This document shows, piece after piece, positions 784-62,243 of a stretch of DNA of 64,000 nt (within the stretch, counting starts at the first letter, position 1; every line of letters begins with the position of its first letter). The translations under genes were made by a program, and so were the position numbers. Origin of the DNA: Escherichia coli. Lineage in GTDB: Bacteria > Pseudomonadota > Gammaproteobacteria > Enterobacterales > Enterobacteriaceae. The notes beneath the pieces are model-generated. The model was not told the DNA's origin, made no database searches, and saw only the letters and a program-made list of their open reading frames with translations. The stretch lies in assembly GCF_030384885.1 (NCBI RefSeq), contig NZ_CP128613.1; one strand, written 5' to 3'.

Positions 784-834
784 GTAAAAATTATATTTCA
801 GGACAAGAAGTTATGCTCGAGTCAAGCTAATGAA

Positions 835-4632: not shown

Positions 4633-4864
4633 GCGCTTCCCCCGCAAATTCATCATGCGATGATTTTCGCAGGGAAAACCTCGTCCGCACCCTGCCACTT
4701 TTTAGACTGAGCGCAGACCACCTATGTCGTTTTACTTAAAAGAAGAGGGAAGAAGGCTCCAGGCATCTCCATATGCGATTCTGGTTGGTAATACATCATA
4801 TTCCAGCTGCTCTTATCCGCCTACGTTATTGCATATACGGATAAGGCAGCCTCAATACGTACTT

Positions 4865-6430: not shown

Positions 6431-6477
6431 CCAGTGAGATAAAGGATTGCTACATTACGTTCTGAAAGGCTTTTTTA

Positions 6478-6493
6478 TGTGAGAATACTCACA
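6478..6493. promoter_or_regulatory. perfect consensus CRP-type site TGTGA-N6-TCACA in divergent promoter region
   Basis: sequence TGTGAGAATACTCACA read directly between the divergent nucleotidase gene (4865..6430) and the zinc-ribbon gene (6551..7678). Confidence 0.4.
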
Positions 6494-6550
6494 TCCAGAG
6501 GCGATAACTGTAGGACAAAATCAACGACCTTATGAAATCGTTGGTGATAT

Positions 6551-7678
6551 ATGTCAAATCTGTTTGCGATTAATGTCTGTAAAACGTTCGGTTGTCGAAA
6601 TTTGGGATTGGCCTCATCGGAAGATTACAGTTGGCCAGACTATAAACTGGGTTTTCCGGCACTGCACTGCCAGGCATGCGGAAGTTACCCCCCTTTGTTT
6701 GATGAACAACAATTTCGTGACTGGTTGTCAGTTCACATGACTGCGTGTGCCATAGAAACAGGGCATTTTTGTCCATCATGCTATTGTAAAGAAAAGATTT
6801 TTTATGGCCACAACCCGCAGGGAACACAACGCGTTCAATGCCGTTCATGCAAAAAAGTCTGGACTCCGAAACAGCAGCCAGCAAGAGAAATTACGTATCC
6901 CCAGTCCATTGAAACCGTTCAACTGTTCATGCCCTTTCAAGGAGCCAGCGCAGTACAAAAGCTCTATGTTTTAGTCAGTCTTGACGCCACTCGTGGCAAC
7001 ATCCTTCATCTCTCCACGAATTATACGCAACATCAGACAGGAGACAGTCTGCGGTACAGTTACAGAGGCAATACAGAACCAACTGAGCACCATAGCGATA
7101 TTGCGCAGAGGGTAGATATGCGTGAAGCACAATTCTTGCGCCGGAGCCAGTTCGATGAAATTCAGTATGGCAGTGCTGTGCTCAAGCGCAACGGCAAGGG
7201 AGCCATACTACGCCCGGTTATCACGGCACACGGGCATTTCAGAATACTGAAAATCCGCTTTCCACATGTCAAAACGCATATCATTTCACACGAATGTTTT
7301 CTGAGAGGCGCAATTATTACAGCCTGGGCAGATCAGTTCCGCCAACAACAAGGCGAACTTTGGTTCGTAGAGGAAGAAATCAGCGACCGTAATGCTGATA
7401 TTCCCTGGCATTTTCAGGGAACGACATACCATGGTTGGTGGCAAAATCAGTGGCAACGCTGGGGGCAGGGGAATAACAGCAAGATGGTCTGCCTGCTCAC
7501 AGGAGTCTCCTTAGAAAGGGGCGCAAATGTTTCTCTGGCAACCAGTCGTTGCTTTATCACATGGCTGACAGACCAACACGACTTTACCCAAAGCGCGTTA
7601 TTATCCGCAGGTCGCGTAACGAAAATGCTGACCTCACTGGCGTTAAAATACAATGAATCGCTCACTCCATCTTGTTAG
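6551..7678 (+). CDS. hypothetical protein with N-terminal Cys-rich zinc-ribbon (IS1 InsA-like / transposase-type zinc finger)
   Basis: 375-aa ORF; Cys pattern CPSCYC...QRVQCRSCKKVW resembles InsA-type zinc ribbons; the rest has no motif I recognise. Confidence 0.45.
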   Translation: MSNLFAINVCKTFGCRNLGLASSEDYSWPDYKLGFPALHCQACGSYPPLFDEQQFRDWLSVHMTACAIETGHFCPSCYCKEKIFYGHNPQGTQRVQCRSCKKVWTPKQQPAREITYPQSIETVQLFMPFQGASAVQKLYVLVSLDATRGNILHLSTNYTQHQTGDSLRYSYRGNTEPTEHHSDIAQRVDMREAQFLRRSQFDEIQYGSAVLKRNGKGAILRPVITAHGHFRILKIRFPHVKTHIISHECFLRGAIITAWADQFRQQQGELWFVEEEISDRNADIPWHFQGTTYHGWWQNQWQRWGQGNNSKMVCLLTGVSLERGANVSLATSRCFITWLTDQHDFTQSALLSAGRVTKMLTSLALKYNESLTPSC

Positions 7679-12275: not shown

Positions 12276-14708
12276 CTACAACAACTGCGCCAGACGGTTA
12301 ATATCCGACTGAATCGCCCCGGCGGTGACGTCGCGCCCTGCGCCTGGCCCACGGATCACCAGCGGGTTGTCGCGATACCAGCGGCTTTCGATGGCAAAGA
12401 CGTTATCGCACGGTAGTAGTGATGCCAGCGGATGGTCTTCTCGCACCGCTTCCACGCCTACTCGCGCTTTGCCGTTAGCATCGAAACGCGCCACGTAGCG
12501 CAACACCAGCCCCATTTCACGGGCCGCTTCCAACCGTTGTACCATCTGCTCATTAAGTTCATCGCCATTTTCAAAGAAATGGTCGATGCTGCCACCTTCG
12601 CAATGGGTTGGCACCAGTGATTCAACACGCACCTGGTCCGGTTCAATGTTGTAACCCGCTTCACGCGCCAGAATCACCAGCTTGCGCATCACATCTTTGC
12701 CGGAGAGGTCATCACGCGGGTCAGGTTCAGTTAAGCCCTGCTGCCACGCCTGATCCACCAGCTCAGTAAACGGCACGCTACCGTCGAATTGCAGGAACAG
12801 CCAGGAGAGCGTGCCGGAGAAGATCCCGCTGATCGACAAAATAGTGTCGCCGCTGTCGATCAGATCGCGCACGGTATGGTTGATCGGCAAACCTGCGCCG
12901 ACGGTGGCGTTGTATAGCCAGTGACGCCCGGTTTTTTCGAACGCGTCGTGGATCTGTCGATATTTATTGCTGTCGCTGGCTCCCGCCAGTTTGTTGGCAC
13001 TGATGACGTGGAAACCGTGGCTGGCGAAATCGAGATACTGATCAGCAAGCTGCTGGCTGGCAGTAACGTCCAGCACCACTAAATCATCATACGGATGGGC
13101 ACGCATCCACAGGAACAGCGACTCTTCATCCTGTTCGACGGCTTCATCATTAAAGAAGGCTAGCGCACGGCTGGCGTCCAGCCCGTCATAGCTCAACAGG
13201 CTGCGACGGCTGTCCACCACGCCTGCCAGCACAAATTCAAAGCCGGTGCGCGCCGAGAGCGTGCTCTGCTCACGGGCGAACAGTTCCAGCCAGCGGGAAC
13301 CGATATTGCCCTTACCGAACAATACCAGGCCGATGCGTTTTTCTGCGCGGAAGACGGACTGATGCAGCCCCTGAATCAGGCTTTCGGTAGGTCCGGTACG
13401 CAGTACTGCCACCAGGCTGATGCCGTCATCGGACTGCCAGGTAAATTCGACCGGCTGGCCTTTCAGTTGCTGCCAGAAGCGGTGGCAATGCAGCGGGTTA
13501 CGGGTGACGCCTGCACCAACCATCGCCACCAGCGCCAGCCCCTGACGCAGGCGCAGTTCGCCAGGTAATCCTGCTTCGTCGAGGATTTTCAGCGCACTAT
13601 CGGCCACTTCCGAGGTGTAGCAAAATTGCAGCAACTGGCGATCGTTATGCACGCCAACCGCCAGTGGGCGCACCTGAGCACGTTTCAGGATTTGGTCGAT
13701 CTCTTTATGCGCCAGTTTGAAATCCTGACTGGCGGGCACCTGAAACTCAATCAAACAGACATCATCGTGGCTGGTGACAATACGCGCGCCAGTACCGGAA
13801 GCCAGCACGCGTTCAATGCGCGTGGAACCTTGATCCGGCGTGTAGCTACAGCGCAGCTGCAGGTCGATTTCACTGCCAGAAACTGGCTGTAAAGTACGGG
13901 CGTGAAGAACGGGGGCCGCCAGACGCGCCAGTTCACTGGCTTCATCAAGACGCAGCAATGGCAGCAGGCAGGCATCTTTCACTTTACGCGGGTCAGCGCT
14001 GTATACCCCGGCGACGTCGCTCCAGATGGTTACGCGGGAAACTCCCGCCAGCGCACCGATTTGTGTCGCGGAATAGTCGGAACCGTTACGCCCCAGCAGC
14101 ACCGTTTCACCGGCGTTGTTACGGCTGATAAACCCGGTCACCACCAGACGTTTGCCCGGATGTTGTACCAGTAGCTGTTGCAGCAACGGGTAAGAAAGCC
14201 CTTCATCAACCTGCGGCTGCGCGGCGCGTTCAGCGCGTAAAAACTCGCGGGCATCAAGCCAGGCCGCAGGCAATCCTTGTTGATTAAGTACCGCAGACAT
14301 CAGGCGCGCCGACCACACTTCACCGTGGCCCACCACTTCCGCATACACCGCATCGTTAATACCGCTGTCGAGCAGCGCCGCCAGGCGTTCCAGATCGCTG
14401 ACAAAAGCGCTAATGAGGCTATCGGCTTCTTCGGCGGGTAGCAGGCCGCTAATCAGATCGCACTGATAGCGACGCAGCGTTTGTTGAACCTGATGCGCAG
14501 AGAGACGATCGGTCTGGCTTAGTTTCAACCAGTTAATCAACTGGTTAGTGGTGCTACCGGCGGCGGAAACCACCATCATATCGTCAGGCTGAGAGTACTC
14601 CGCCATAATGCCCGCGACACGCAAATAACACTTCACATCAGCCAGACTACTGCCACCAAATTTATGCAGTTGACGACCTTTCGCCCCTGCCTGCGCAATC
14701 ACACTCAT
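12276..14708 (-). CDS. metL: bifunctional aspartokinase II / homoserine dehydrogenase II
   Basis: 810-aa ORF recognised as MetL; immediately downstream of metB as in the metBL operon. Confidence 0.95.
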   Translation of the reverse strand: MSVIAQAGAKGRQLHKFGGSSLADVKCYLRVAGIMAEYSQPDDMMVVSAAGSTTNQLINWLKLSQTDRLSAHQVQQTLRRYQCDLISGLLPAEEADSLISAFVSDLERLAALLDSGINDAVYAEVVGHGEVWSARLMSAVLNQQGLPAAWLDAREFLRAERAAQPQVDEGLSYPLLQQLLVQHPGKRLVVTGFISRNNAGETVLLGRNGSDYSATQIGALAGVSRVTIWSDVAGVYSADPRKVKDACLLPLLRLDEASELARLAAPVLHARTLQPVSGSEIDLQLRCSYTPDQGSTRIERVLASGTGARIVTSHDDVCLIEFQVPASQDFKLAHKEIDQILKRAQVRPLAVGVHNDRQLLQFCYTSEVADSALKILDEAGLPGELRLRQGLALVAMVGAGVTRNPLHCHRFWQQLKGQPVEFTWQSDDGISLVAVLRTGPTESLIQGLHQSVFRAEKRIGLVLFGKGNIGSRWLELFAREQSTLSARTGFEFVLAGVVDSRRSLLSYDGLDASRALAFFNDEAVEQDEESLFLWMRAHPYDDLVVLDVTASQQLADQYLDFASHGFHVISANKLAGASDSNKYRQIHDAFEKTGRHWLYNATVGAGLPINHTVRDLIDSGDTILSISGIFSGTLSWLFLQFDGSVPFTELVDQAWQQGLTEPDPRDDLSGKDVMRKLVILAREAGYNIEPDQVRVESLVPTHCEGGSIDHFFENGDELNEQMVQRLEAAREMGLVLRYVARFDANGKARVGVEAVREDHPLASLLPCDNVFAIESRWYRDNPLVIRGPGAGRDVTAGAIQSDINRLAQLL

Positions 14709-14710
14709 TT

Positions 14711-15871
14711 TTACCCCTTGTTTGCAGCCCGGAAGCCATTTTCCAGGTCGGCAATTAAATCTTCGCCATCTTCAATACCGGTGGAGATACGCAGCAGCGT
14801 CTCGGAGATCCCGGCGGCAGCACGCGCTTCTGGTGCCATGCCTGCATGTGTCATGGTTGCGGCGTGAGAGATTAAACTTTCCACTCCCCCTAATGATTCC
14901 GCCAGCGTAAACAACGACAACCCGCCCAGGAAACGACGCAGCGTCTGCTCATCGCCATCCAGTTCAAAACTCAACATTGCGCCAAAGCCTTTTTGCTGGC
15001 GCGCGGCAATTTCATGCCCCTGATTTTCCGGCAGCGACGGGTGATACAGTTTTTTCACTAACGGCTGGGTTTGCAGATATTTCACTATCGCCTGCGCGTT
15101 GCGCTGCGCCAGCTCCATACGCGGCACCAGCGTTCGCAAACCGCGCAGCAACAAATAACTGTCAAACGCGCCGCCCGTCACGCCAATATTGTTTGCCCAC
15201 CAGGCCAGTTCGGTGACAACGTCCGGGTCTTTAGCAATCACCACGCCAGCCACTACATCTGAGTGACCGTTCAGATATTTCGTGCATGAATGCAACACCA
15301 GATCGGCACCTAATGCCAGTGGATTTTGTAATGCCGGGCTTAAGAAGGTGTTATCCACCACGCTCACCGCCCCGACTTCCCTTGCCAGATGGCAGATTTT
15401 CGCAATATCCACGACGCGTAACAATGGATTACTTGGGCTTTCTACCAGTACTAGTTTGGGTTTTTCTGCCAGTGCAGCCTGCAATGCCTGCTCATCTCCT
15501 TGATCAACAAACAGCACGCGATAACAGCCGCGTTTCGCCAGGCTGTCGAACAGGCGATAGCTGCCGCCGTAGCAGTCGTGCGGCGCAACCAGCAAATCGC
15601 CAGGTTTCAAAAAGACGGTCGTTACCAGGTGGATGGCAGACATGCCGGTATTAGTCAGCACTGCACCAGCACCGCCTTCCAGTTCAGCCAGCGCACGCTG
15701 AACCACATCGCGCGTTGGGTTGCCGCGACGCGAGTAATCATGCGCGCGCGGTTCATTAAATCCGGTAAAGTTATAGGTGCTGGAAAGATGGATGGGAGGG
15801 ACAACGCAACCATACTGTTCGTCGTCATTTAACCCGCTACGCACTGCAATGGTGGCCTGTTTACGCGTCAT
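14711..15871 (-). CDS. metB: cystathionine gamma-synthase
   Basis: recognised as MetB (MTRKQATIAVRSGLNDDEQYG...); the track ORF extends further upstream, start moved to the Met matching the 386-aa protein. Confidence 0.95.
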   Translation of the reverse strand: MTRKQATIAVRSGLNDDEQYGCVVPPIHLSSTYNFTGFNEPRAHDYSRRGNPTRDVVQRALAELEGGAGAVLTNTGMSAIHLVTTVFLKPGDLLVAPHDCYGGSYRLFDSLAKRGCYRVLFVDQGDEQALQAALAEKPKLVLVESPSNPLLRVVDIAKICHLAREVGAVSVVDNTFLSPALQNPLALGADLVLHSCTKYLNGHSDVVAGVVIAKDPDVVTELAWWANNIGVTGGAFDSYLLLRGLRTLVPRMELAQRNAQAIVKYLQTQPLVKKLYHPSLPENQGHEIAARQQKGFGAMLSFELDGDEQTLRRFLGGLSLFTLAESLGGVESLISHAATMTHAGMAPEARAAAGISETLLRISTGIEDGEDLIADLENGFRAANKG

Positions 15872-15926
15872 GTGATGAAGTTCCCTGGGCTTGGTCGGTG
15901 AAATGTCAGGCACCAGAGTAAACATT

Positions 15927-15966
15927 GTGTTAATGGACGTCAATACATCTGGACATCTAAACTTCT
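15927..15966. promoter_or_regulatory. tandem met boxes (MetJ operator) in the metJ / metBL divergent control region
   Basis: tandem 8-bp repeats GGACGTCA ATACATCT GGACATCT AAACTTCT, matching the AGACGTCT met-box consensus. Confidence 0.6.
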
Positions 15967-16147
15967 TTGCGTATAGATTGAGCAAATCCCAAATAGCCGT
16001 TAAAATTATATGCATTATCACGCCGACAGGTGCATTACACGATGTCACGGTAACGCCTGTACGGTAAACTATGCGGGTTTACGGTCAGTACCCACATAAA
16101 TTGTGTGGTCTGATCTCAATTTATTGACGAAGAGGATTAAGTATCTC

Positions 16148-16465
16148 ATGGCTGAATGGAGCGGCGAATATATCAGCCCATACGCTGAGCACGGCAAGAA
16201 GAGTGAACAAGTCAAAAAGATTACGGTTTCCATTCCTCTTAAGGTGTTAAAAATCCTCACCGATGAACGCACGCGTCGTCAGGTGAACAACCTGCGTCAC
16301 GCTACCAACAGCGAGCTGCTGTGCGAAGCGTTTCTGCATGCCTTTACCGGGCAACCTCTGCCGGATGATGCCGACCTGCGTAAAGAGCGCAGCGACGAAA
16401 TCCCGGAAGCGGCAAAAGAGATCATGCGTGAGATGGGGATTAACCCGGAAACGTGGGAATACTAA
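16148..16465 (+). CDS. metJ: methionine repressor MetJ
   Basis: recognised as MetJ ([35 protein letters not shown]...); start moved to the Met matching the 105-aa protein. Confidence 0.95.
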
Positions 16466-16524
16466 AGCGGAAAAGAGCGGCGCGGAGTTAACCAGCCGCT
16501 TTTTTCATACATGGACGTTTAACT

Positions 16525-17133
16525 ATGAAATACAGGCTACTGATCCTCAACCTGCTGGTTTCTGTGCCTGCCTTTGCCTGGCAGCCGCAAACTGGCGACA
16601 TCATCTTTCAAATCTCTCGCTCATCGCAAAGTAAAGCGATCCAACTGGCGACCCATTCCGATTACAGCCACACCGGTATGCTGGTGATGCGTAACAAAAA
16701 GCCCTACGTTTTTGAAGCGGTCGGCCCGGTGAAATACACCCCGCTCAAGCAGTGGATCGCCCATGGTGAAAAGGGTAAATACGTTGTTCGCCGCGTTGAA
16801 GGCGGACTGAGTGTTGAACAACAGCAAAAACTGGCGCAAACGGCAAAACGTTATCTCGGAAAACCGTACGATTTCAGCTTCTCATGGAGCGACGATCGCC
16901 AGTACTGTTCGGAAGTGGTGTGGAAGGTTTACCAGAATGCGCTGGGGATGCGCGTGGGTGAACAGCAAAAACTGAAAGAGTTCGATCTCAGCAACCCGCT
17001 GGTTCAGGCGAAGCTCAAAGAACGTTACGGGAAAAATATTCCGCTTGAGGAAACGGTGGTCTCGCCACAAGCCGTTTTCGATGCGCCACAACTCACCACA
17101 GTCGCCAAAGAATGGCCGCTGTTTTCGTGGTAA
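16525..17133 (+). CDS. yiiX: YiiX family protein (putative lipid-binding hydrolase)
   Basis: 202-aa ORF with signal peptide; recognised as YiiX; position next to metJ matches K-12. Confidence 0.85.
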   Translation: MKYRLLILNLLVSVPAFAWQPQTGDIIFQISRSSQSKAIQLATHSDYSHTGMLVMRNKKPYVFEAVGPVKYTPLKQWIAHGEKGKYVVRRVEGGLSVEQQQKLAQTAKRYLGKPYDFSFSWSDDRQYCSEVVWKVYQNALGMRVGEQQKLKEFDLSNPLVQAKLKERYGKNIPLEETVVSPQAVFDAPQLTTVAKEWPLFSW

Positions 17134-17136
17134 TGG

Positions 17137-17250
17137 ATGATGAAAAAAATAATTCCCGCCGTAGTCTGTTTGTTGCTTTGTAGTTGCACGACCTTTCCGC
17201 AAGCTGTCGCTCCGGCAGGGAAAGATTACGAAAGCCCGCTCCCAGCAAGG
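17137..17250 (+). other. lipoprotein-like ORF fragment running into the ISAs1 element
   Basis: ORF 17137..17514 begins MMKKIIPAVVCLLLCSCTT (signal peptide with lipobox-like LCSC) and then overlaps the 3' end of the transposase gene on the opposite strand. Confidence 0.25.
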
Positions 17251-18480
17251 ACTGACGCCAGATACTTTCTGTCCATGGCTGCTTTTCGCATCTTACGTCT
17301 TAACCCTGCCTTGAATACCTTATCATTCGTTAAAATATTAATAGCGATGTGCCGTATCCCTGAAAATAATTCTGCGGCGTTTCCTCTTCGTATTTTGCAG
17401 TCGTCTTCATTCATTACCACGTCCAGACGCCAGTGCAGCTTATTCTCCACGTGCCAGTGGTTTCGGATTGCTGTGGCGAACTTTTCTGCGGTTAAATCAG
17501 CAGAACTGATATAATATCTGACCGTCATTTCTGGCTCTTTCTTTTGTTCTGCTATTATTGACCGAAAGGAGAATGCCACGCATAATTTCTTCAGTCCTTT
17601 CCATTCAAACGTGAAATCAATAAGTTCATCACGGACATCGCAAACAATATGAAGACGGATTTCTTCTCTGCCGTGACTCTTTTCACTCATTGCGTAACTG
17701 TCATGCTCTGGATTATTTAATTCTTTCAGCGGAAATTTTTCCTCGAAGGCTTTATTTAGCCGCCCCTGGTTTCCTTTTACAGCGAATACATAATCACCGC
17801 CCTGTTTTTGTATCTTCTCTGCAATATCTTTCTGGCAACCCATCGCATCAGTTGTGATGATTTTTCCTTTAATATCCAGCATGTTAAGAAGTTCAGGGAT
17901 AGCTGTAATTTCATTGGATTTCTCATCCGTCCTGATCTGTCCGATGACCAGACTGTGCATTGTTGAGAATGCACTAATGACATGAATCGCTCCCCTGCGG
18001 CGACTCTTGTCATAAGAATGCCGGAGTGTTTTTCCATCAATTGCGATGACGTCTTTATCATCTGAAGTATGGCAATCTCGCATCCAGTTAATAAAGCACT
18101 CGTGAAATTTTGAAGGACTGATACAGGATACAACTCTGGCGATGGTATCGTGAACAGGAATACCATTTTCAAAATCACCATATTGTTTTAAAAAATCGCG
18201 ATGTGCTTCCCCAAAATCCTCTATATGTTCCCAGCCTTCTGCACCAGAAATAACGGCGCAAATAGTCAACAGTAGAATATCCGATAATTTATGTTCCACT
18301 TTCCAGGTTTGTCTGTAATCGGGGATAATAGAAATATGTTCCATCAATTTTTTAAGTTCCATTCTTTTCTCCTTAATTATGTAAGGAGTATTTGATCATG
18401 TATAAGCAATAAAAAAACAGCTTCAGGCAATGAGGAATATCTCAATTTTTAAACATAAAATGCGAATTGTTTAGTACAAA
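17140..18480 (-). mobile_element. ISAs1-family insertion sequence (H-repeat element); ends approximate
   Basis: single transposase ORF filling a segment of about 1.3 kb, typical of H-rpt elements; terminal repeats not determined. Confidence 0.6.
17226..18362 (-). CDS. ISAs1-family transposase (H-repeat-associated protein)
   Basis: 378-aa ORF recognised as the H-repeat (H-rpt) protein found in Rhs elements. Confidence 0.85.
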
Positions 18481-18489
18481 AAAGCAGCG

Positions 18490-19100
18490 TTAAGTGAGTA
18501 GGCCACCGGAACCTCCCCGACAGCCTCTCGCAGAACCGTACGTGAAACTCTCGCTTCATACGGCTCCCGTCAGGCAAACGCGCTTCCTGGTCCTGCTTTC
18601 CAGTGGGCAAACAACTCCGGCTTCTCTTTTGACAGCCTTTCCATTAGCTGACACGCCTTCGTCTTTCTATACCGCAGGGTTTTATATTTCTTTCTCGCCC
18701 ACGCAATCAGCGTCAGATTAATATATCTGCATACTTTCTTCATCGCTGATTTGTGGTATCTCGCGTAATAATTCAGCCACCCCAATATTATCGGATTCAG
18801 CCACTTCGCAATATCTTCGAGACTCATCTCCACCCTGCGTCTGATCCACAGTTTCCTGAGTTTTCCAATCATGCCTTCGGGTTTACTCATCTCACTGTAT
18901 CTCACATAGGATCAGATCTCGTCTGATCGTTCCCCCTGCGCTCACTACCATGGCTCTTTACCACAGCAGCCGGGGTTGTTTGGGACCGACTTCCGACAGC
19001 AGATCCCGGTGGGCCTGCCACCATCTCTTCACAAGCTTATGCTTATTACATGCAAAACGTCCCGTTTTGCATCTTTGTGCCTACGGCACACCGTGATCTT
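18490..19100 (-). mobile_element. 5'-truncated group II intron remnant (maturase C-terminus plus RNA domains V and VI)
   Basis: ORF 18570..18905 carries a maturase-like motif (WLNPIILGWLNYYARY); downstream on the same strand, about 18532-18566, is GAGCCGTATGAAGCGAGAGTTTCACGTACGGTTCTG, which folds as a domain-V-like hairpin. Confidence 0.6.
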
Positions 19101-19111
19101 TCCCTGTCGGC

Positions 19112-19320
19112 ATGTTGACCACTGACGAATGGGGTAGTTACGCTAGAGAGTTACCAAAGGAGAAGCATCTGACTGGTAAGATTTTTACTCAGCATATTGA
19201 GCGTAACAATCTGACCCTGAGAACCCGAATCAAACGTCTGGCCCGCAGAACCATCTGTTTCTCGCGTTCTGTAGAACTTCATGAAAAAGTCATCGGTGCT
19301 TTTATCGAAAATATATGTTC
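19112..19320 (+). pseudogene. IS1-family transposase (InsB-like) C-terminal fragment
   Basis: ORF 19112..19426 contains TDEWGSYARELPK...FTQHIERNNLTLRTRIKRLARRTICFSRSVELHEKVIG, similar to the C-terminal part of IS1 InsB; no N-terminal part. Confidence 0.6.
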
Positions 19321-19395
19321 TACTAATTGGAGTCATCACCCTTCTGATGAGCTTTCCTTGGATGATTACCAGACTGAATACATAGCCAAAGATTT

Positions 19396-19719
19396 TTACC
19401 TCATTCTGCTTTTTTTTCTCAAATGACATATATTATATTTTACATCATATTCATAGGCATATGACATTCCCCCGCCCCCCATTATGTCATTGTGGGTTGA
19501 TGTTGGGCTTTCATAAAAAAATACATCTTTTTTTGAACTAGCATTAATTATATTTACTTTATATATTAAAATATTTTCTCCATCTGGAAATATTTTAGCC
19601 ACACAATATAAAGCAGCCAAATCCGAATTACTTAAAAATATATTGTCATCACTCATAACTCCAGCCATTAAATGACTGGAGACTAAAGCAAGGAAATAAC
19701 AACATTGTATTGCCTTCAT
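19396..19719 (-). CDS. putative immunity protein for the adjacent Rhs C-terminal toxin
   Basis: about 107 aa from internal Met (MKAIQCCYFLALVSSHLMAGV...), hydrophobic signal-peptide-like N-terminus; start codon lies 1 nt after the toxin stop with an AAGGGAG RBS; very AT-rich. Confidence 0.5.
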   Translation of the reverse strand: MKAIQCCYFLALVSSHLMAGVMSDDNIFLSNSDLAALYCVAKIFPDGENILIYKVNIINASSKKDVFFYESPTSTHNDIMGGGGMSYAYEYDVKYNICHLRKKSRMR

Positions 19720-19720
19720 T

Positions 19721-20275
19721 TTAATTACTCCCTTGCCTGATAATTGTAACTCCATTCCCTTTAGCTTTGGGATTATATTTTAGATAGGTGTTATTTGGTG
19801 TTCCCAAGTAACTACTGTATTCTTTTTTTCCCATTCCATTCATATAAGAATTCGTTAAATCTTTGCTTGAAAAATTTAGACTATCATAAACATCATTTTC
19901 TTTTGTTACTTTATTTCCTTTATCGTCAGAGTAAAAACCGTGAGTGTGATAATCGCCTACTCTCTCTGAACCTTCAGGGCATTTTATATTTCGCAAGTCT
20001 ACACTATCATTATCATTTGAACTTATCGGATTCATGGGGAAATATTCACCTTGCTTCTTACATATTAGTCCACCATATTCTTTATTCTCGTTAATTGATT
20101 CTCCATTACACATTGCCAATGCAAATATTCCAATATCATCTATATTTTTTGATTTAAATTCATATAATCCTAATGGATCCATGCCATTCACCGGGCTCAG
20201 CGGATATGTATACAGGTTCCATCCCCCCTTCAGCCCAATCGGATCCTGAGTGATATACCGCCCCTGTAACCGTCC
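19721..20275 (-). CDS. Rhs C-terminal tip: end of Rhs core (DPxGL motif) plus variable toxin domain
   Basis: reading frame encodes ...[35 protein letters not shown] followed by about 145 aa of low-GC sequence with conserved Cys/His (GDYHTHG); DPxGL marks the core/toxin boundary in Rhs proteins; no in-frame ATG at the 5' end. Confidence 0.6.
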
Positions 20276-20664
20276 TCACCGGGAAACAGGTGCTCAAAAT
20301 ACAGGCTTCTGCCGCCGTTATCACTGAGTATCAGAGTGTTATCGCGCAGCTGCAAGCGGATATCCGCAGGCATTTTCCAGCCGGGGCCGAGGCTCCCCAC
20401 CGGCGCGGGCGTTTTTGTCCGGTAACTGCTGTAGGTGCGGGAGAGGATGAACGGCAGCGGGCCGGGCAGGGCAAGGTCGGTTTCGCCGGGAAGGACCTTC
20501 GCACCGAGCAGCGGATTGACCGGATGGCCGGACGTCACCCCGCCGGGGCACACCGAACAGGCCACGCCGGTGGGGGCACCAATACGTACCCCGGCAGAAC
20601 CCTGGACAATGGGGCCACCATACTGCGTCATGTCGCCCTGACGCGCCGCCGGTTTTCCGCTCAT
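20230..20664 (-). pseudogene. Rhs N-terminal (PAAR-like) fragment, out of frame with the C-terminal tip
   Basis: 144-aa ORF MSGKPAARQGDMTQYGGPIVQGSAGVRIGAPTGVACSVCPGG... matches the conserved N-terminus of E. coli Rhs proteins for about 125 residues, then terminates. Confidence 0.7.
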
Positions 20665-29450: not shown

Positions 29451-30167
29451 ATGAGATACGTTATCTTATTAATACTATGGATAATAACTACTTTTCTTAG
29501 TCATCTTCAGCACAGCAACCTACTGTCTGGAGATCCTGGCATGGTTGGCGAGTATATCGGTTCAGTATTTCTGGGGCCGTTGTTACTTCCCGTGCTTGTG
29601 TCAGGTATTCTGTGCGCATTTATTAAAAAAAAACGTAACTTCGCCAGTTTTACTCGCGGGTGCTGTTGGGTATTGGGAATCCTGCTTTTATCCAAAGTCG
29701 GCAATACGTTTCGTATGTTTACCCCGTGGCAATATACCTTTGAGAATGCTGCGATAACCGTGACTATCCCGAACCGACACTGGAATACGGTTTCCATTAG
29801 TACTAATAAAACCATTGATATAAGAAGTGAGGATAATAGCGTCTTCATTTCTGCTTTCCGCCTGCCCGCAGGACGTAGCGCCGATGACCCGCTGGAAGCG
29901 TTAAAGAAGAAGCAGCGAGACAATCTCAAGGATCAATACAATGAGGAAGCCTTCCAGTTTCATGATTGTAATGCCAAACATTTCACCTGTAAGTATCAGG
30001 ATGTGTTGATAAATTTTGATGGTCAGCAGAAAAGAACCATCAGTGTTTATCTTGAAGACACCCCCAGGGCTGTGGGGATCATTGCATTAATGGCGCCAGA
30101 TACGGCAGATAAATATCGCCAACAGGCGATGGAGATTATGCTTTCCGCTAAAAATGCAGTGAAGTAA
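29451..30167 (+). CDS. hypothetical membrane-anchored protein on an AT-rich insert
   Basis: 238-aa ORF; two or three predicted N-terminal TM helices then a soluble domain; no motif I recognise; AT-rich upstream region. Confidence 0.5.
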   Translation: MRYVILLILWIITTFLSHLQHSNLLSGDPGMVGEYIGSVFLGPLLLPVLVSGILCAFIKKKRNFASFTRGCCWVLGILLLSKVGNTFRMFTPWQYTFENAAITVTIPNRHWNTVSISTNKTIDIRSEDNSVFISAFRLPAGRSADDPLEALKKKQRDNLKDQYNEEAFQFHDCNAKHFTCKYQDVLINFDGQQKRTISVYLEDTPRAVGIIALMAPDTADKYRQQAMEIMLSAKNAVK

Positions 30168-45459: not shown

Positions 45460-45544
<85 letters not shown>

Positions 45545-54332: not shown

Positions 54333-54367
54333 TGCCGGATGCGGCGCGAGCGCCTTATCCGGCCTAC
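54333..54367. repeat. REP element between rhaA and rhaD
   Basis: TGCCGGATGCGGCGCGAGCGCCTTATCCGGCCTAC. Confidence 0.75.
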
Positions 54368-54410
54368 GGGTCGTGCATCCGACAACACCGAATTTACAGG
54401 AACACAGAAC

Positions 54411-55235
54411 ATGCAAAACATTACCCAGTCCTGGTTTGTCCAGGGAATGATCAAAGCCACCACCGACGCCTGGCTGAAAGGCTGGGACGAGCGCAACGGC
54501 GGCAACCTGACGCTGCGCCTGGATGACGCCGATATCGCGCCTTATCACGACAACTTCCATGCACAACCGCGCTATATCCCGCTCAGCCAGCCCATGCCTT
54601 TACTGGCAAATACACCGTTTATTGTCACCGGCTCCGGCAAATTCTTTCGTAACATCCAGCTTGATCCTGCGGCTAACTTAGGCGTCGTAAAAGTCGACAG
54701 CGACGGCGCGGGCTACCACATTCTCTGGGGGCTAACTCACGAAGCCGTTCCAACCTCTGAACTTCCGGCTCACTTCCTTTCCCACTGCGAGCGCATTAAA
54801 GCCACCAACGGTAAAGATCGGGTGATCATGCACTGCCACGCCACCAACCTGATCGCCCTTACCTACGTACTGGAAAACGACACCGCGCTCTTCACTCGCC
54901 AGCTTTGGGAAGGCAGCACCGAGTGTCTGGTAGTGTTCCCGGATGGCGTCGGCATTTTGCCGTGGATGGTGCCCGGCACGGACGAAATCGGCCAGGCGAC
55001 CGCACAGGAAATGCAAAAACATTCGCTGGTGTTGTGGCCCTTCCACGGCGTCTTCGGCAGCGGTCCGACACTGGATGAAACATTCGGTTTAATCGACACC
55101 GCAGAAAAATCAGCACAAGTATTAGTGAAGGTTTATTCGATGGGCGGCATGAAACAGACCATCAGTCGTGAAGAGCTGATAGCACTCGGCCAGCGTTTCG
55201 GCGTTACACCACTAGCCAGTGCGCTGGCGCTGTAA
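54411..55235 (+). CDS. rhaD: rhamnulose-1-phosphate aldolase
   Basis: recognised as RhaD ([24 protein letters not shown]...); start moved to give 274 aa. Confidence 0.95.
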
Positions 55236-55244
55236 GGAGCAAAC

Positions 55245-55559
55245 ATGATCCGCAAAGCCTTTGTCATGCAGGTTAACCCCGACGCCCACGAAGAGTATCA
55301 GCGTCGGCATAATCCAATCTGGCCGGAACTGGAAGCAGTGTTGAAATCTCACGGTGCGCATAACTACGCCATTTACCTTGACAAAGCGCGTAATCTGCTG
55401 TTTGCCACGGTAGAGATTGAATCTGAAGAACGGTGGAATGCGGTAGCCAGTACTGATGTTTGCCAACGTTGGTGGAAGTATATGACCGACGTTATGCCAG
55501 CTAACCCGGATAACAGCCCAGTCAGTAGCGAGCTGCAAGAAGTGTTTTACCTGCCTTAA
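55245..55559 (+). CDS. rhaM: L-rhamnose mutarotase
   Basis: 104-aa ORF recognised as RhaM (YiiL). Confidence 0.95.
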
Positions 55560-55872
55560 TTGCCCAATGTGCCGGAAACGCCTCCGGCACAATACTTTTA
55601 ATTTCTACTTAAAAAAATAAACATATTGCACCTTCAATGAGTATATCCAGGCAAGTTATATTTCCCCGATACATTATGAGCAAATCACAAAAATAATGAA
55701 TAACTCATTAATGATTCATGTCGTTTATTTAAATAACCATTATTTGCATTACTCCGCAAACCTGACCTTTCCCTCTATCTCAAATTGTCATCGTTTGCCG
55801 ACATATCGACTCTCATCACTTAGTCGCTCCACCATTACAATGGGTTAAAATATATTTTATGGAGTTCGATTA

Positions 55873-56421
55873 ATGGCTGCTCTTACTGCAAGCTGTATTG
55901 CCTTGAATATTCAGGGCAATAGCGATTATTCCATTCTGAGACAGCTGGCTACAATAGCATGTCAAAATGGTTTCATTACCGATTCTCATACGTTTCTGCA
56001 GACCCTACTGCGACGCGAAAAAATGCACTCCACAGGATTTGGTTCTGGCATTGCCGTACCACACGGTAAAAGAGCCTGCGTTAAACTACCCTTCGTGTTA
56101 TTCGCCCGCAAAGCACAGGCCATTAACTGGAAAGCCAGCGACGGCTAAGGCGAAAACCTGATTGTTAATCGTCTCGCCATCCCACATGGCTGGAGCGAAC
56201 AGGAACGCCGTTTTCGTGGATTTTTTATTACCCTCGCCCAACCGCTCGAGGTGAATAACGAAGTCATTAACCATGTGTTGATCGCCTGTGCCGCCGCTGA
56301 TGCGCGCCACGAGTTGAAAATATTCAGCTCTCTGGCAAGCGTACTATGTACGTATCCGGCGGAGACTATTGCCGGGCTAACGGGATATGAAGGGTGTATA
56401 GCGTTACTTCGTCAGGAGTGA
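55873..56421 (+). pseudogene. frvA: frvA-like PTS EIIA (fructose-type) remnant with in-frame TAA at 56146-56148
   Basis: first 91 codons contain the EIIA phospho-His motif GSGIAVPHGK; after the stop the same frame stays open to about 56421 with a second IPHG-like motif; expected neighbours frvB/frvX/frvR not found before yiiG. Confidence 0.5.
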
Positions 56422-56458
56422 ATGATGTCGGATCCACGTTTGACACGGCTTAACGACG

Positions 56459-56494
56459 TGTAGGTCGGATAAAGCGTTTACGCCGCATCCGACC
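56459..56494. repeat. REP element upstream of the yiiG 3' end
   Basis: GTAGGTCGGATAAAGCGTTTACGCCGCATCCGACC. Confidence 0.75.
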
Positions 56495-56522
56495 TTGTAT
56501 TTCTCAGCAAAAATAAAAACGT

Positions 56523-57578
56523 TTAACGCAGGCGATTATAATCATCGACCATTTCGTTGTACTCACGTAATGCTCTCGGGAAAGAGTCGTCGACCATCCA
56601 ACTTGTGTTTGCATCCTGAAGTTGCTCTTTATCCCAGTCAGAATACGGAACTTTATCTCTGACGCGGCGAACATATTTTTTAGCCTCGAGTTGATACTGG
56701 TCTGCCGAATTAATGAACGAGAAATTCATACCGCCTTTATCCGCTTCTTTGGCCTGCGCCACCAGCGTTTCCAGTTCAGAGACTTTCTTCATTGCCGCAT
56801 CAACATCAAACTTCTCTTGCGAAATCAGGTTATTAATTTGTTTCGCTGAAATCATGACTGCCAGGGAGTAGTAGTGGAATGTTTTTCCTTCTGTTTCTTC
56901 AATATTTTTCAGTTCCGCAAGCTGACGCTTATCGTTAATTTCCTGAATCGCCGCATGATAAGATTCTGCTACAGGTTCAAAGGCTTCAAGATTTTTTAAG
57001 AATGTCTGGTGCAGCGTTTTCCCTTTCGCAAACGCATCGTCTTTATAATTTTCCTGGGTGTAATATTTATCCATTTCGTTAATGGTATTACCCAACGCCA
57101 CGGCAGCATCAATATAACTCACCGCCACGCCATCAATAGGTTGCAGCGCAGGCGTTAACGCCACAGCACTTTTTACGCCTTTTTCACACTCAGCGAGGTT
57201 GGATTCACTAATACCGTAGATACCATAAACAGTACGCTCTTCACCGGTAGGGCCCTGTTTAAAATCTTTCAGCCAGTCAGCATAACGCGCCAGACTGCTC
57301 TGTACAGGGATCTGTAACTTGTTGTAGCACTTGATATAGACATCCATTTTTTCGTCGAAAACCGCTTGTTCATCGACCACCGGTTGAGCAGGCGTTTCAG
57401 GTTTAACTTCTGCTTTTGCAACGGGAGCTTCAGCAGGTTTCGCTTCAGGAGCTGGTGCGGCAGGTTGACTATTGGCAGGCGGGGGCGTTTCTGTTTCGGA
57501 TTTTTTATCGTCACAACCCGTGAGACCGAGGGCCATTATGGCGACTATAATAGCGGAAGATAATAAATTCCTTTTCAT
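56523..57578 (-). CDS. yiiG: lipoprotein YiiG
   Basis: 351-aa ORF with lipoprotein signal (LTGCDDKK) and Pro/Ala-rich linker; recognised as YiiG. Confidence 0.85.
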   Translation of the reverse strand: MKRNLLSSAIIVAIMALGLTGCDDKKSETETPPPANSQPAAPAPEAKPAEAPVAKAEVKPETPAQPVVDEQAVFDEKMDVYIKCYNKLQIPVQSSLARYADWLKDFKQGPTGEERTVYGIYGISESNLAECEKGVKSAVALTPALQPIDGVAVSYIDAAVALGNTINEMDKYYTQENYKDDAFAKGKTLHQTFLKNLEAFEPVAESYHAAIQEINDKRQLAELKNIEETEGKTFHYYSLAVMISAKQINNLISQEKFDVDAAMKKVSELETLVAQAKEADKGGMNFSFINSADQYQLEAKKYVRRVRDKVPYSDWDKEQLQDANTSWMVDDSFPRALREYNEMVDDYNRLR

Positions 57579-57788
57579 TTAATTGCCTTATAAATAGATA
57601 AATAAGAGTGTGAATATAATAAATGAAAAAAGAAAATGTCACTACACGCGTTTTGTTTATAAATAAATCGATAATATTCATAAAATGAATAAGTCCTGTA
57701 ATTTAATTTCTAAATCACAGGACTTATTTTAACTAACGGCACAACCTTTGCGGGAGGGAGTGTCATGTCCCCCACCATTAATCATGCA

Positions 57789-60095
57789 CTACATCCCGTA
57801 GCGTTCGGCAATAGTGGCATGTTTCTCTTCATTCGCCCCGGCTTCTTTGGCGAGACGCCACCAGCACAACGGATGTTCCCAGTCAGCGGTCAATTCGTGC
57901 AAGGTCTTATCGATATCACCTTTAGAAATTGAACGCGGCGCACTGATAACAAAGTAGAATGCGGGAAGTGGCTGCGCATCTTCACCCTGATGACTGTCCG
58001 TTAACGTATAGTCGTCATTACTGTTGCTCCAGTAGTACCAGTTTCGTTCACGGAGCGCCTCACGGAAAGTATTAAACTCTTCTTCACCAGGCATGACACC
58101 TTCGCAGAACCAGGACTCGCCGTATTCGGTCGGGATAATGGTGTTCAGGCACCCATAAAGCGGAGTGAAATTCTTCCGTTCTTCCTCATCCTCTGGTTGG
58201 GTGTTCAATATTTCTGCATCGAATACCACAACTTCATCAACATGTTGCGGATAATCGGTCCGGTAAGTTGGCTCAATGATCCTTGCTGTTACCGGCCCAA
58301 TACGTTGAGCATAGTAATAGCGGTATTCATAATTTTCCCGGAAGCGGATGTTTAACAGCCCCCATTTTTCGTCAATAAAACCTTCGCCTTCCGTGAGCTC
58401 GATTTCCAGTTCAGCAGCAATAGCACGAACCAAATCCCATTGTTGCAGGATGCTGGCGGTCGCCATGATATCCCACTGGAGATTGCGAATATCTTCTTCA
58501 CGGCTAATCATCAGTTGCTGCAATTGTTGTAAATAATCCAGCTGTCGATCCCAGGCTTCCTGTTTTTGTGCTGCCCAAGAGCACATGCGATAAACGCCAA
58601 CCCACTCACGCCCTTTTTCGTGTTGCAGCAACTGTTGCCCAATCGACTCCAGTTCACTCCAGTCTTCCTGTTGGTTGAGCACTCGCGCACGGAACCACAA
58701 GGCCATATGTAGCAGCCCCGCCTGTTCATACTGCTTCGCCAGGTGCTCAATGGTTTGCAGATCGTCACGGTGGAGCAATAAATCCAACAGATCGAAGCAA
58801 AGACCATTATCTTCCTGGATGTGGCTTTCGACGTAGCGTTGCAGAAGTTCAATCGACTCATCAATCGCATTACAGGCGTTTAACGCATTGACCAGTTTGC
58901 CCAGCAATTCCGCATCATCTGGCGCGTTCAGGTAAGCGCGGCGGAATGTTTCGACGTCTTTTTCTGGATCTGGTTGCGTTTCTTCATCGCTATTTTCAGG
59001 TACTTCTACAACCGGACGAGCAAGCAACTCTGCTTCTTTGGCGGCGATTTTTTCACTCAGTTCGAGAAACTCACGATCAACCCCCAGTAACACGCGTAAT
59101 TTTGGCATGTGTCGCTGGGCCAGTTTCATCGCTATTTTGGCAACCCAGACGGATTCACGCTCCAGCGCCAGGGTAATTTGCAGTTTCGCCAGATCAACCA
59201 CTTTGCGGTGCGCTCCGGCCTGCGAGCGGTGCTCCAGCATTTTTTGGATGATGCGCGCCAGTTGCCAGTTGTTTCTTTGTGGATGACGGGGAAGTAACAC
59301 AGTAATGATTTTCAGCCATGACCCCCATGAATGGGGAGTCAGATCTGACCAACGCGGTAATTCCTCCCAGACTTCTTCGTCCTGCCCGCATAACGCCATG
59401 ATGTACAGTTTTTTGAGGTGATTACTAATGCGGTCGCGGCCCCAGTAATCATTGGCTTCTGTCAGCTCATCAATCAGTATGCGTGCTTCATCATAACGCT
59501 GAAGTTCAATCAGAATATCGGCACGAGTATAAAGTAATGCATCAATATCATCTTCCCCGGCTGCTTTAACTGCGTCGATTTGTCGATCCAGATAAGCCAA
59601 TGCCTCCTCTATTCTTTTGGAATCTATCAGTGCACTGGCATATTCAGTGGACAAACACTGAAAACAGCTCCAGGTCGGATCAATCCGCGCGATGGTTTCT
59701 TCACATACCGCCATACGTTCATTCGCCCAGCCAGGTGCATCAATATTTTCGTAGCAGGCGGATAAATCCTGGGTAACGCAGATAGATTGTGGGCAATCTT
59801 TTGTCTCTTCCCGGTGCGCTTTTTCAAACAGCGCCACTACGTCAGGCAGTACTTTTTCACCTTCTTCGCGGTTAGTCAGGCGATGGCGCATTTCCCAGTG
59901 ACCAATAAAAATCTCCAGCCACGGATTTTTTGCCACCTGGGTAAGTGCTTTTACTTCAGGTAACAGCGAATCGCACTTTTCCATTTGCAGGTGCATAACG
60001 CCTTCCGAATAATCATCGATAAGTTGCGGAATATATTCCTGCCCGGCATCGCGTAACTCCTTAGTATATTTGTGATACCACTCCCATATATCCAT
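57789..60095 (-). CDS. hypothetical 768-aa helical protein, translationally coupled partner of the Hsp90-like ATPase
   Basis: large acidic, predicted mostly alpha-helical protein with no motif I recognise; ATG lies 1 nt after the upstream stop with an AAGGAA RBS inside the upstream gene. Confidence 0.6.
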   Translation of the reverse strand: MDIWEWYHKYTKELRDAGQEYIPQLIDDYSEGVMHLQMEKCDSLLPEVKALTQVAKNPWLEIFIGHWEMRHRLTNREEGEKVLPDVVALFEKAHREETKDCPQSICVTQDLSACYENIDAPGWANERMAVCEETIARIDPTWSCFQCLSTEYASALIDSKRIEEALAYLDRQIDAVKAAGEDDIDALLYTRADILIELQRYDEARILIDELTEANDYWGRDRISNHLKKLYIMALCGQDEEVWEELPRWSDLTPHSWGSWLKIITVLLPRHPQRNNWQLARIIQKMLEHRSQAGAHRKVVDLAKLQITLALERESVWVAKIAMKLAQRHMPKLRVLLGVDREFLELSEKIAAKEAELLARPVVEVPENSDEETQPDPEKDVETFRRAYLNAPDDAELLGKLVNALNACNAIDESIELLQRYVESHIQEDNGLCFDLLDLLLHRDDLQTIEHLAKQYEQAGLLHMALWFRARVLNQQEDWSELESIGQQLLQHEKGREWVGVYRMCSWAAQKQEAWDRQLDYLQQLQQLMISREEDIRNLQWDIMATASILQQWDLVRAIAAELEIELTEGEGFIDEKWGLLNIRFRENYEYRYYYAQRIGPVTARIIEPTYRTDYPQHVDEVVVFDAEILNTQPEDEEERKNFTPLYGCLNTIIPTEYGESWFCEGVMPGEEEFNTFREALRERNWYYWSNSNDDYTLTDSHQGEDAQPLPAFYFVISAPRSISKGDIDKTLHELTADWEHPLCWWRLAKEAGANEEKHATIAERYGM

Positions 60096-60096
60096 T

Positions 60097-61932
60097 TTAT
60101 TTTCCTTGATTAATTAAGACAGGAATAACCTGAGTAAAATCTTCCAGTGCCTGATGTAAATCCCACTGCTGTTCTTTATTACCACTGGAGCACAAAATCA
60201 CTTTCAGCGATTTTAATAACCGTAATGCTGCCGCTGGCTGTTGATGGTGTTGTAATGCCGTCACCAGTTGCATGACACAGGGGTTATTAAGATTGATATA
60301 CAGACTTGAAGTTTTAGTCTTTTGGATTTGCGAGGTAAATTGCCGCGCCAGCATTAACGCTGCGGTGCTGATGCGTTTATCTGCGTCATCCTGTTCGAGA
60401 ATTTGTTTTAATTCTGCTTCGCGGTCTGGCGTGACCACGAGCGGTAAAACCGCTGGTTCGAAGCGGGAGATAATTAATTGCTCGCCGTCGCAAAGATGCT
60501 CTTCCAGATAAGCAACCTGCTCTTCAGGTAATTCTGCCAGGCTGAACAACTGCTCATTACCCGTTTGCGTACCGACTTCGATAATCCGGCAGTGATATAA
60601 CAGCGCCCAACGACGTAAAAATGGCACCACCGCATAACGATCGCCACGGGCTACGGGCCGTTGCAGAATATGAAACAACATCTCTTCAAAACCGCCGTCG
60701 CGGCTTAACAGAATATGAATGCTGTTATTAACGCGTAAATCCTTCGCCAGCAACGCCCCTTTTGACGTTGGCACCTGCAAGCGATCTTTGAGCAAATCAA
60801 ACAGACGGTCATCACATAATGCCGCACCGAGCAACGCTTCGTTGTGGCGCATTAATACACGCCGCCAGATTTCTGGCTGATTTTGTGCGAGATCGGACAA
60901 ACCAGAAATCAGCGCCTCTTTTAACGCCTCCTGCACCGCAACCCAGGTTTCGTCCCGCTGGAGATCTTCCCGGCTCGCCGTAGGCGTTAGTTTCGATGAC
61001 TCAATCACGCCGCCAATAAATCCGGCCCAGGGAGGTAACAACTCACGCGCTTCATCATCCAGTAACATACCGCGCAAAAACAGCGACAGGTTGCGGTTAT
61101 CGCTGGTGCCGTAGGTTGCGCCATCCTGAATCCATAAAATCCCGACCGCATCGCTCATACCCGCTGGCACCACCGGAATGGTGCAAATCGGTTCAAAGGA
61201 GGATTCAAACTGGGCGGCAAAGGCGAGATTTTTACGCTGCACCAGCGCGCGGTGTATGGTTACGCCTTCGGGGGCAACTTCACGCCACGGTGGTTGAAGT
61301 TTATTTACCGGCTCGCTGGCATCGCCGACATAGACCGGTTCGTGCAGCAATATGCAGTAGCGGGAAAGAACGCGGTTCAGCAGATTATTACTCGCCAGAT
61401 GGCTGTACTCTTCTTTGAGCGTCAGAATCACCTGCGTTCCCGGCGCCGAGGACTGATGCGGCGTAACGGTATATTTTTGCCCGTCGGTAGAGTGGTATTT
61501 CCAGCTCTGATCCGGCGTTTGCCAGGATGTGGTCAACACCGTGACCTCTTTCGCCAACACAAAGGCCGACAAAAAACCGAGGCCGAACATACCAATTAAA
61601 CCGGTGTTGTCATCCTGCTGGCGCAACATTCGGGTATAACCCACGCCCACTGTCGCCAGGAAGCCGTGAATTTCGCTTTCTGTCAGACCCGCACCGGTAT
61701 CGGTAATGGTGATGGTGGACTTCGCCACGTCTGCCACTACACGAATTTGGTTATCCTTTGGCGCATCGGGCTGCTCAATCCTGCGGCGAACGATCGCATC
61801 ATGGCCGTTCTGCACCAGCTCGCGCACGGCAACTACGGGAGTGGAGTAAAGATGCTTACTGAGCACCTCAATTAAACCGTTTAAATTAACTTCTGTAGAA
61901 TATGAACTGCCAGGTAACTGTAATGTACTCAT
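60097..61932 (-). CDS. Hsp90/HtpG-like GHKL (Bergerat-fold) ATPase family protein
   Basis: 611-aa ORF; GHKL motifs ELVQNGHDA (E-x3-N-x2-D), ITDTGAGLT (DxGxG), GMFGLGFLSAF (GxxGxG), in the order and spacing seen in HtpG; not the canonical htpG. Confidence 0.7.
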   Translation of the reverse strand: MSTLQLPGSSYSTEVNLNGLIEVLSKHLYSTPVVAVRELVQNGHDAIVRRRIEQPDAPKDNQIRVVADVAKSTITITDTGAGLTESEIHGFLATVGVGYTRMLRQQDDNTGLIGMFGLGFLSAFVLAKEVTVLTTSWQTPDQSWKYHSTDGQKYTVTPHQSSAPGTQVILTLKEEYSHLASNNLLNRVLSRYCILLHEPVYVGDASEPVNKLQPPWREVAPEGVTIHRALVQRKNLAFAAQFESSFEPICTIPVVPAGMSDAVGILWIQDGATYGTSDNRNLSLFLRGMLLDDEARELLPPWAGFIGGVIESSKLTPTASREDLQRDETWVAVQEALKEALISGLSDLAQNQPEIWRRVLMRHNEALLGAALCDDRLFDLLKDRLQVPTSKGALLAKDLRVNNSIHILLSRDGGFEEMLFHILQRPVARGDRYAVVPFLRRWALLYHCRIIEVGTQTGNEQLFSLAELPEEQVAYLEEHLCDGEQLIISRFEPAVLPLVVTPDREAELKQILEQDDADKRISTAALMLARQFTSQIQKTKTSSLYINLNNPCVMQLVTALQHHQQPAAALRLLKSLKVILCSSGNKEQQWDLHQALEDFTQVIPVLINQGK

Positions 61933-62207
61933 TTTTCAATACTCATAATCCATCACCTACTATTGAAAATACATTGCTGTTTTTTACAACCGGTGCAAGG
62001 TTTGTTATTTGCATTCACTCATCGGAAACATTTATTTATTGACGCGATGATTAAAACAAAATGTCTTATATAAATAATGATTAATTCTTAAAGGATTAAT
62101 GCGACTGGAGTATATCGATATAAACTGGAATTAACGAGATAATTTCTTGTGGTGAAATTATTATTTAAATGCTGAATAATATATTGAGGATTATTTAATA
62201 GAAAAAT

Positions 62208-62236
62208 AAAACCGCAATCCAGAATCAGAATTGCGG
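62208..62236 (-). terminator. rho-independent terminator downstream of fdhD
   Basis: hairpin ACCGCAATCC...AATTGCGGT with T-run on the minus strand after the fdhD stop. Confidence 0.55.
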
Positions 62237-62243
62237 TATTTCT

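Follow-up and report, generated by a model that had tools for sequence, protein, structure and literature searches.

The DNA between rhaM and yiiG in the window (the whole 64,000-nucleotide stretch that was analysed) is very probably a non-functional remnant of the frvABXR operon, produced by a deletion between short repeats and then by a nonsense mutation at the joint. The gene order around the remnant is the usual one for E. coli (glpFKX, tpiA, pfkA, cpxPRA, sodA, rhaT, rhaRS, rhaBADM, remnant, yiiG), and window positions 55560-56530 match the E. coli 2013C-4282 chromosome at 100% identity (NZ_CP027579.1; window position 1 corresponds to record position 3302606). Strain 2013C-4282, together with TW10509 and MOD1-EC4550, is a member of cryptic clade I (Okuno et al., PMC10100065). 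The K-12 operon consists of frvA (EIIA), frvB (EIIBC), frvX (aminopeptidase) and frvR (putative regulator); the window locus resembles it in its position between rhaM and yiiG and in its orthologous arms, and differs from it in lacking 4168 bp, in having arms that are about 85% identical to those of K-12 and in carrying a stop at the joint. The features of the locus are as follows.

55560..55872, plus strand: rhaM-frvA intergenic region, the former frv promoter region, with no carbohydrate-porin gene
55873..56145, plus strand: frvA' arm, frvA codons 1-91, the N-terminal two thirds of EIIA with VPHG (from the ORF and profiles)
56134..56149, plus strand: junction microhomology GCCAGCGACGGCTAAG, to which K-12 frvA and frvR both align
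56146..56148, plus strand: TAA nonsense codon from GAA (Glu92 of frvA, which is Glu492 of frvR)
56149..56421, plus strand: 'frvR arm, frvR codons 493-582 and TGA, the C-terminal part of the EIIA-like domain with IPHG
56460..56495, no strand assigned: REP-like imperfect palindrome between the remnant and yiiG (inverted repeat 56462-56477 / 56480-56495)
56523..57578, minus strand: yiiG, the intact right-hand neighbour (dN/dS against K-12 of 0.13)

As the first-pass annotation had read it, the ORF that begins at ATG 55873 ends after 91 codons at TAA 56146-56148, and past that stop a further 90 codons are open in the same frame, up to a TGA at 56419-56421. The chance of a 90-codon open stretch in random sequence is about 0.013, and the frame is open past the TAA because it is the native frvR frame. 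In all, 61% of frvA and 15% of frvR are left, with the TAA at the joint, as in a pseudogene. The PGAP/RefSeq annotation describes the two pieces as "PTS fructose transporter subunit IIA, missing C-terminus" and "putative frv operon regulatory protein, missing N-terminus", both partial pseudogenes; the frv remnant is an ordinary pseudogene, known already from public annotation. Neither frvB nor frvX was found between the remnant and yiiG, in agreement with the first-pass annotation, which had also listed frvR as missing; this last point did not hold, since the final 90 codons of frvR are the downstream partner of the fusion that it had proposed. A REP element and yiiG had been placed just downstream, and both were recovered there. 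The REP-like palindrome is extragenic, and its 16-nt arms are 81% complementary, which places it among REP-like elements. A second copy of it lies at 45461-45494 with 3 mismatches (0 expected by chance), and at the site between the remnant and yiiG the element is present in strain 06-00048 and absent from K-12 and GF43. Aligned to the K-12 rhaM-frvA spacer, 55560..55872 shows about 27 substitutions and one 13-bp indel.

A nonsense mutation together with a deletion that fuses frvA to a downstream gene's 3' end had been put forward as plausible, and the alignment to K-12 that had been proposed for mapping the breakpoint supports it. BLASTN against K-12 gave two collinear blocks, window 54333-56152 matching rhaD-rhaM-frvA through frvA codon 94 and window 56134-57753 matching the frvR 3' end and yiiG from frvR codon 488. 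The 4168 bp missing relative to K-12 comprise the frvA 3' end, frvB, frvX and frvR codons 1-491. The two blocks overlap by 19 nt, and this overlap is a microhomology, a near-repeat found in both parent genes. The 16-nt near-repeat reads GCCAGCGATGGCGAAG in K-12 frvA (position 2833 of the K-12 locus, L002), GCCCGCGAAGGCGAAG in K-12 frvR (L002 7001) and GCCAGCGACGGCTAAG in the window at 56134-56149, where one copy is left. The two K-12 copies are identical at 14 of 16 positions with an exact core GGCGAAG, and diagnostic bases confine the crossover to 56138-56149. Only four 16-mers of the 5-kb K-12 frv region reach 14 or more matches out of 16, and the junction repeat is among them. In K-12, frvA codon 92 and frvR codon 492 are both GAA and both in phase 0, so that the 4168-bp deletion fused the frames codon to codon. 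A repeat at both breakpoints with a single copy at the junction is the signature of a microhomology-mediated deletion, as read against parental junction sequences taken from K-12 as a proxy for the true parent. With K-12 standing in for the parent in this way, the deletion step is shown by alignment.

In the history that emerges, a deletion of about 4.17 kb (in K-12 coordinates) joined frvA codon 92 to frvR codon 492 within the shared GCGA-GGCGAAG microhomology. This event removed the frvA 3' end, frvB (EIIBC), frvX (peptidase) and the DNA-binding part of frvR, and the frames were joined by chance into a 182-codon chimera running through EIIA profile positions 3-94 and then about 51-144, with two His loops. 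Later, in the sub-lineage of the window, a G-to-T change turned GAA into TAA, leaving a 91-codon frvA stub and an untranslated frvR tail. The locus resembles other short-direct-repeat deletions that make bacterial pseudogenes in that a single repeat copy was kept at the junction and the intervening DNA was lost; it differs from them in that the frames happened to join and a later stop arose inside the kept repeat copy. It offers a clean natural case of a short-repeat deletion followed by a nonsense mutation, and the precise sequence of the junction could be used to mark the lineage.

The domain content of the two arms was evaluated with Pfam and NCBIfam profiles. On Pfam PTS_EIIA_2 (PF00359), residues 4-95 of the read-through translation cover profile positions 3-94 (K-12 FrvA covers 3-143), and the second arm alone covers profile positions 55-119. 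On the NCBIfam models, residues 1-105 fall on the FrvA model PRK09913 (positions 1-104) and residues 86-181 on the FrvR model PRK09863 (490-585). A complete EIIA-2 domain takes about 144 profile positions (FrvA has 148 aa), of which the 91-codon ORF supplies only 3-94. The first-pass annotation had judged that the total would exceed a single EIIA domain and had pointed to a second IPHG-like motif, and both observations stood: candidates for the conserved phosphorylatable histidine of the xPHG loop occur in VPHG in the first half (stub residues 62-65) and in IPHG in the second arm. The read-through product would amount to roughly one and a half EIIA domains, carrying two His loops and no clean domain. 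The cognate EIIBC gene frvB is not adjacent, there being none between the remnant and yiiG, and the N-terminal HTH of FrvR is gone, as the match takes in only 490-585 of the 586-position model and the HTH_11 of K-12 FrvR lies at residues 5-60. Since frvB, frvX and the HTH part of frvR have been lost, no Frv PTS function can remain; we infer a locus without PTS function from the missing EIIBC partner and regulator.

Because both parent genes encode PTS_EIIA_2 domains, the fusion could also be imagined as a homologous recombination between equivalent positions of the FrvA and FrvR EIIA domains, giving a hybrid of normal length. The profile coordinates refute this reading and make it highly improbable: the joint connects FrvA profile position 94 to FrvR position about 51-55, which are non-equivalent. 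In addition, FrvA and the FrvR C-terminus gave no BLASTP alignment with each other, and the DNA similarity at the junction is confined to the 16-nt near-repeat. The non-equivalent positions and the absence of a BLASTP alignment point instead to an illegitimate short-repeat deletion.

The order of the two steps was read from alleles that carry the fusion without the stop. Codon 92 is GAA in K-12 frvA, in K-12 frvR, in GF43, in 06-00048 and in seven 182-codon loci. The 90%-identity cluster of the 91-aa product also holds 182-aa proteins; the GAA alleles among these are P0002, P0003 and P0012, P0002 being identical to the read-through translation of the window except for Glu at 92, and several clade I assemblies have an intact 182-codon ORF. 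The seven loci (L014-L020) have G, not T, at nt 274, and five of them show one to four further differences from the window; L017 shows eight. Since the same fusion occurs with GAA in related assemblies, the deletion came first and the GAA-to-TAA (G-to-T) change later. Comparison with the GAA alleles shows the TAA step. The stop codon sits within the junction microhomology, an observation that adds to the first-pass annotation.

Given that the TAA and GAA alleles are one base apart, we considered whether the TAA might be a sequencing or assembly error in a strain that truly has a 182-codon ORF. The probability of this is practically negligible, because the exact 91-aa product was found on about 250 contigs (515 index blocks; NCBI, ENA and Logan assemblies), including that of clade I strain TW10509. 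Further, four independent loci (L007-L010) match the window at each of the 549 nt, the TAA was also found on a metagenome contig (L054), and the TAA haplotype has a linked synonymous marker, A at nt 162, that occurs in no GAA haplotype. The TAA allele is by far the commonest, each 182-aa variant being found on 1-12 contigs. The allele is characteristic of a cryptic clade I Escherichia sub-lineage.

The arms are strongly diverged from all other alleles that were compared. At the DNA level, they are about 85% identical to the K-12, GF43, 06-00048 and clade VI alleles (range 84-88% against the remnants), the frvA arm being 84.6% identical to K-12 frvA over 273 nt. Against other alleles, dS was 0.39-0.77 and dN/dS 0.11-0.24 (against K-12, dS was 0.45-0.65). 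The flanking rhaD, rhaM and yiiG gave dS values of 0.15-0.30 against K-12 and are 97-99% identical to those of GF43; the synonymous divergence of the arms from K-12 is thus 2-3 times that of these flanking genes. The low dN/dS and the predominance of synonymous differences indicate that most of the divergence of the arms arose under purifying selection. Synonymous-biased arms and a 182-codon frame unbroken but for the TAA form the pattern of a selected gene rather than of a long-dead pseudogene; this counts against an old remnant and would fit a recent deletion in a divergent allele that still functioned. Most simply read, the deletion would have hit such a divergent yet functional frv allele, derived from an unsampled lineage.

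Within the window-type lineage, 6 nonsynonymous and 4 synonymous polymorphisms were counted, giving a pN/pS of 0.45, which fits neutrality and is unlikely under the between-allele omega of 0.11 (p = 0.027). Also in the lineage is a 128-aa variant (P0009) with a divergent tail and an early end. Besides the nonsense site, all 10 polymorphic sites lie in the first 279 nt, and none lies in the 270-nt frvR arm (L014-L020; Fisher p = 0.002).

These patterns raise the question of whether the in-frame FrvA(1-92)::FrvR(493-582) chimera was an expressed and selected EIIA-like protein, at least until the recent TAA. A long-selected chimera, if true, would account for the synonymous divergence, for the unbroken 182-codon frame and for the missing parent allele, and the TAA would be a recent inactivation. 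The dN/dS of 0.11-0.24, whichever other allele the arms were compared with, the retention of the 182-codon ORF in several clade I assemblies, the lack of polymorphism in the frvR arm inside the lineage and the fact that no intact parent allele is known all speak for this. However, the low dN/dS is explained equally well by divergence before the deletion; the cognate EIIBC gene frvB has been lost, the chimera repeats EIIA profile positions of about 51-94 and would be an abnormal domain, no other allele is nearly as common as the null TAA one (about 250 contigs, with 1-12 for each 182-aa variant), and the pN/pS of 0.45 within the lineage comes together with a truncated 128-aa variant. We consider a selected chimera improbable and retain the reading of a non-functional remnant.

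Several searches were made for an intact parent. No intact window-type frv allele occurs in 5426 complete E. coli genomes, in which the best intact frvA/frvR are 88-89% identical, and a search of 5.8 billion protein clusters returned no FrvA or FrvR closer than the K-12-like alleles. A scan of the GTDB species representatives, with peptide patterns so specific that the E. coli representative itself was missed, found only clade VI strain MOD1-EC7003 (an intact operon with a more distant allele) and two Kluyvera. When metagenomes were scanned with a 22-mer, 44 loci were returned, 43 of which are chance matches in unrelated AT-rich DNA, the other being the TAA remnant on L054. A search of a literature library found no paper on this frv deletion.

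The first-pass annotation had also suggested checking whether other strains share the deletion; the same fusion was found in the related assemblies described above, and another fusion type in GF43 and 06-00048. Among the 5426 complete E. coli genomes, frvA and frvR are fused at one place in three (2013C-4282, 06-00048 and GF43); 4213 have the arms at separate places, as in an intact operon, and about 1200 have no match. The remnant of GF43 and 06-00048 lies at the same locus, has the same frvA codon at its left end and is likewise annotated by PGAP as two partial pseudogenes. It differs from the window remnant in that its junction lies 37 bp further into frvR with the arms out of frame, in that its arms are K-12-like with a porin gene upstream, and, in 06-00048, in an extra internal stop. 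Against K-12, the frvA arms of GF43 and 06-00048 are about 95% identical, and the frvR arm is about 95% identical in GF43 and 91% in 06-00048. The 5-kb K-12 frv region has only two copies of the exact 9-mer ATTGCTGGA, which lie downstream of the 16-nt repeat at a distance of 6 nt in frvA and 36 nt in frvR.

We favour, with modest confidence, independent deletions at paired microhomologies as the origin of the window-type and GF43-type remnants. A single ancient deletion, after which the GF43 type lost 37 bp more and had its arms replaced by recombination, would explain why the left ends share a codon (GGC GAA) while the right ends are only 37 bp apart, a coincidence that is rare for two random deletions. 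Such a common origin is possible and in our judgement rather doubtful, as the GF43 and 06-00048 arms are K-12-like and only 84-88% identical to the window arms, the differences between the remnant types are mostly synonymous (dN/dS 0.11-0.24), which is unexpected if both had been pseudogenes since a common ancestor, and the two types share no junction-proximal haplotype. Moreover, the microhomologies lie side by side (the 14/16 repeat and the exact ATTGCTGGA, which is found at these two places only), making this a plausible site of recurrent deletion. In a weaker alternative to the long-selected chimera, the paired microhomologies would make frvA-frvR a recurrent deletion hotspot at which the same fusion formed independently in different lineages.

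Apart from the fusions, GGCGAAG at frvA codons 91-93 is the endpoint of several independent natural rearrangements (K-12 copies at L002 2842, 2887 and 7010). P0031 has a 45-bp in-frame deletion between two copies of GGCGAAGA, a second GGCGAAG copy lying 45 bp downstream, and P0016 (Shigella dysenteriae) has a 74-codon tandem duplication with its end at ASDG.

The rhaM-fdhD region as a whole is variable. In strains N3 and UPEC 26-1, frv is fully lost and yiiG is truncated (L022 11096-12225; L021 5075-6069); the deletion begins 18 bp ahead of the frvA start and reaches into the yiiG 3' end, and a second deletion takes the yiiG 5' part. With fusions in some strains and full losses in others, frv has been lost repeatedly: it has been lost several times, and in different ways, in Escherichia. 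Many Escherichia genomes have a carbohydrate porin gene between rhaM and frvA; it lies there in GF43, 06-00048, N3 and UPEC 26-1 (L003 4129-5523, L004 4130-5524, L022 9701-11095, L021 3701-5074), at a site corresponding to window position 55560, and is absent from the window and K-12. Clade VI strain MOD1-EC7003 has a size-matched insert at the porin site, which suggests the same porin gene. The presence of the porin gene does not follow the state of frv.

Between yiiG and fdhD, the window carries a 4.49-kb two-gene insertion (57754-62242) that is not in K-12 or 06-00048. Its ORFs, at 57789-60095 and 60097-61932 (both minus strand), encode a 768-aa TPR-containing protein and a 611-aa HSP90-family GHKL ATPase paralogue, the latter scoring 288 bits on NCBIfam PRK14083, under the 455-bit cut-off. 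This pair was found in 254 of the 5426 complete E. coli genomes, in GF43 and in clade VI strain MOD1-EC7003. We considered a known defence system as an identity for the pair and rejected it, as PADLOC did not match the TPR protein to anything and its hits for the ATPase were weak and below threshold.

The states seen between rhaM and fdhD are therefore an intact frv, two fusion types and a full loss with truncated yiiG, with or without the porin gene and with or without the TPR and HSP90-like pair. This variation may interest researchers of genome plasticity, and it gives no sign of a new mechanism. The remnant itself documents the loss of a dispensable, cryptic PTS operon in a clade I lineage and has little weight beyond annotation.

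Other features were recorded elsewhere in the window. In a comparison of window 54333-54373 with K-12 L002 769-1085, the rhaA-rhaD spacer of the window has one repeat copy and is 82 bp long, against 450 bp in K-12, where the spacer holds about four repeat units 92 bp apart, probably a REP/BIME array. Between yiiX and rpmE (12697-20664) lies a mobile or variable cluster with an ISAs1 transposase, a group II intron reverse transcriptase/maturase (ltrA) and an IS1 fragment, together with an RHS core protein and a small ORF downstream of it. An annotated 208-aa hypothetical protein (WP_123057342.1) is encoded at 29541-30167, between rraA and zapB. Upstream of metL, positions 1-7530 form an accessory block with a serine hydroxymethyltransferase pseudogene that has an internal stop, three paralogous bifunctional metallophosphatase/5'-nucleotidase genes, a 'cytoplasmic protein' gene and a Tsx-like nucleoside channel gene.
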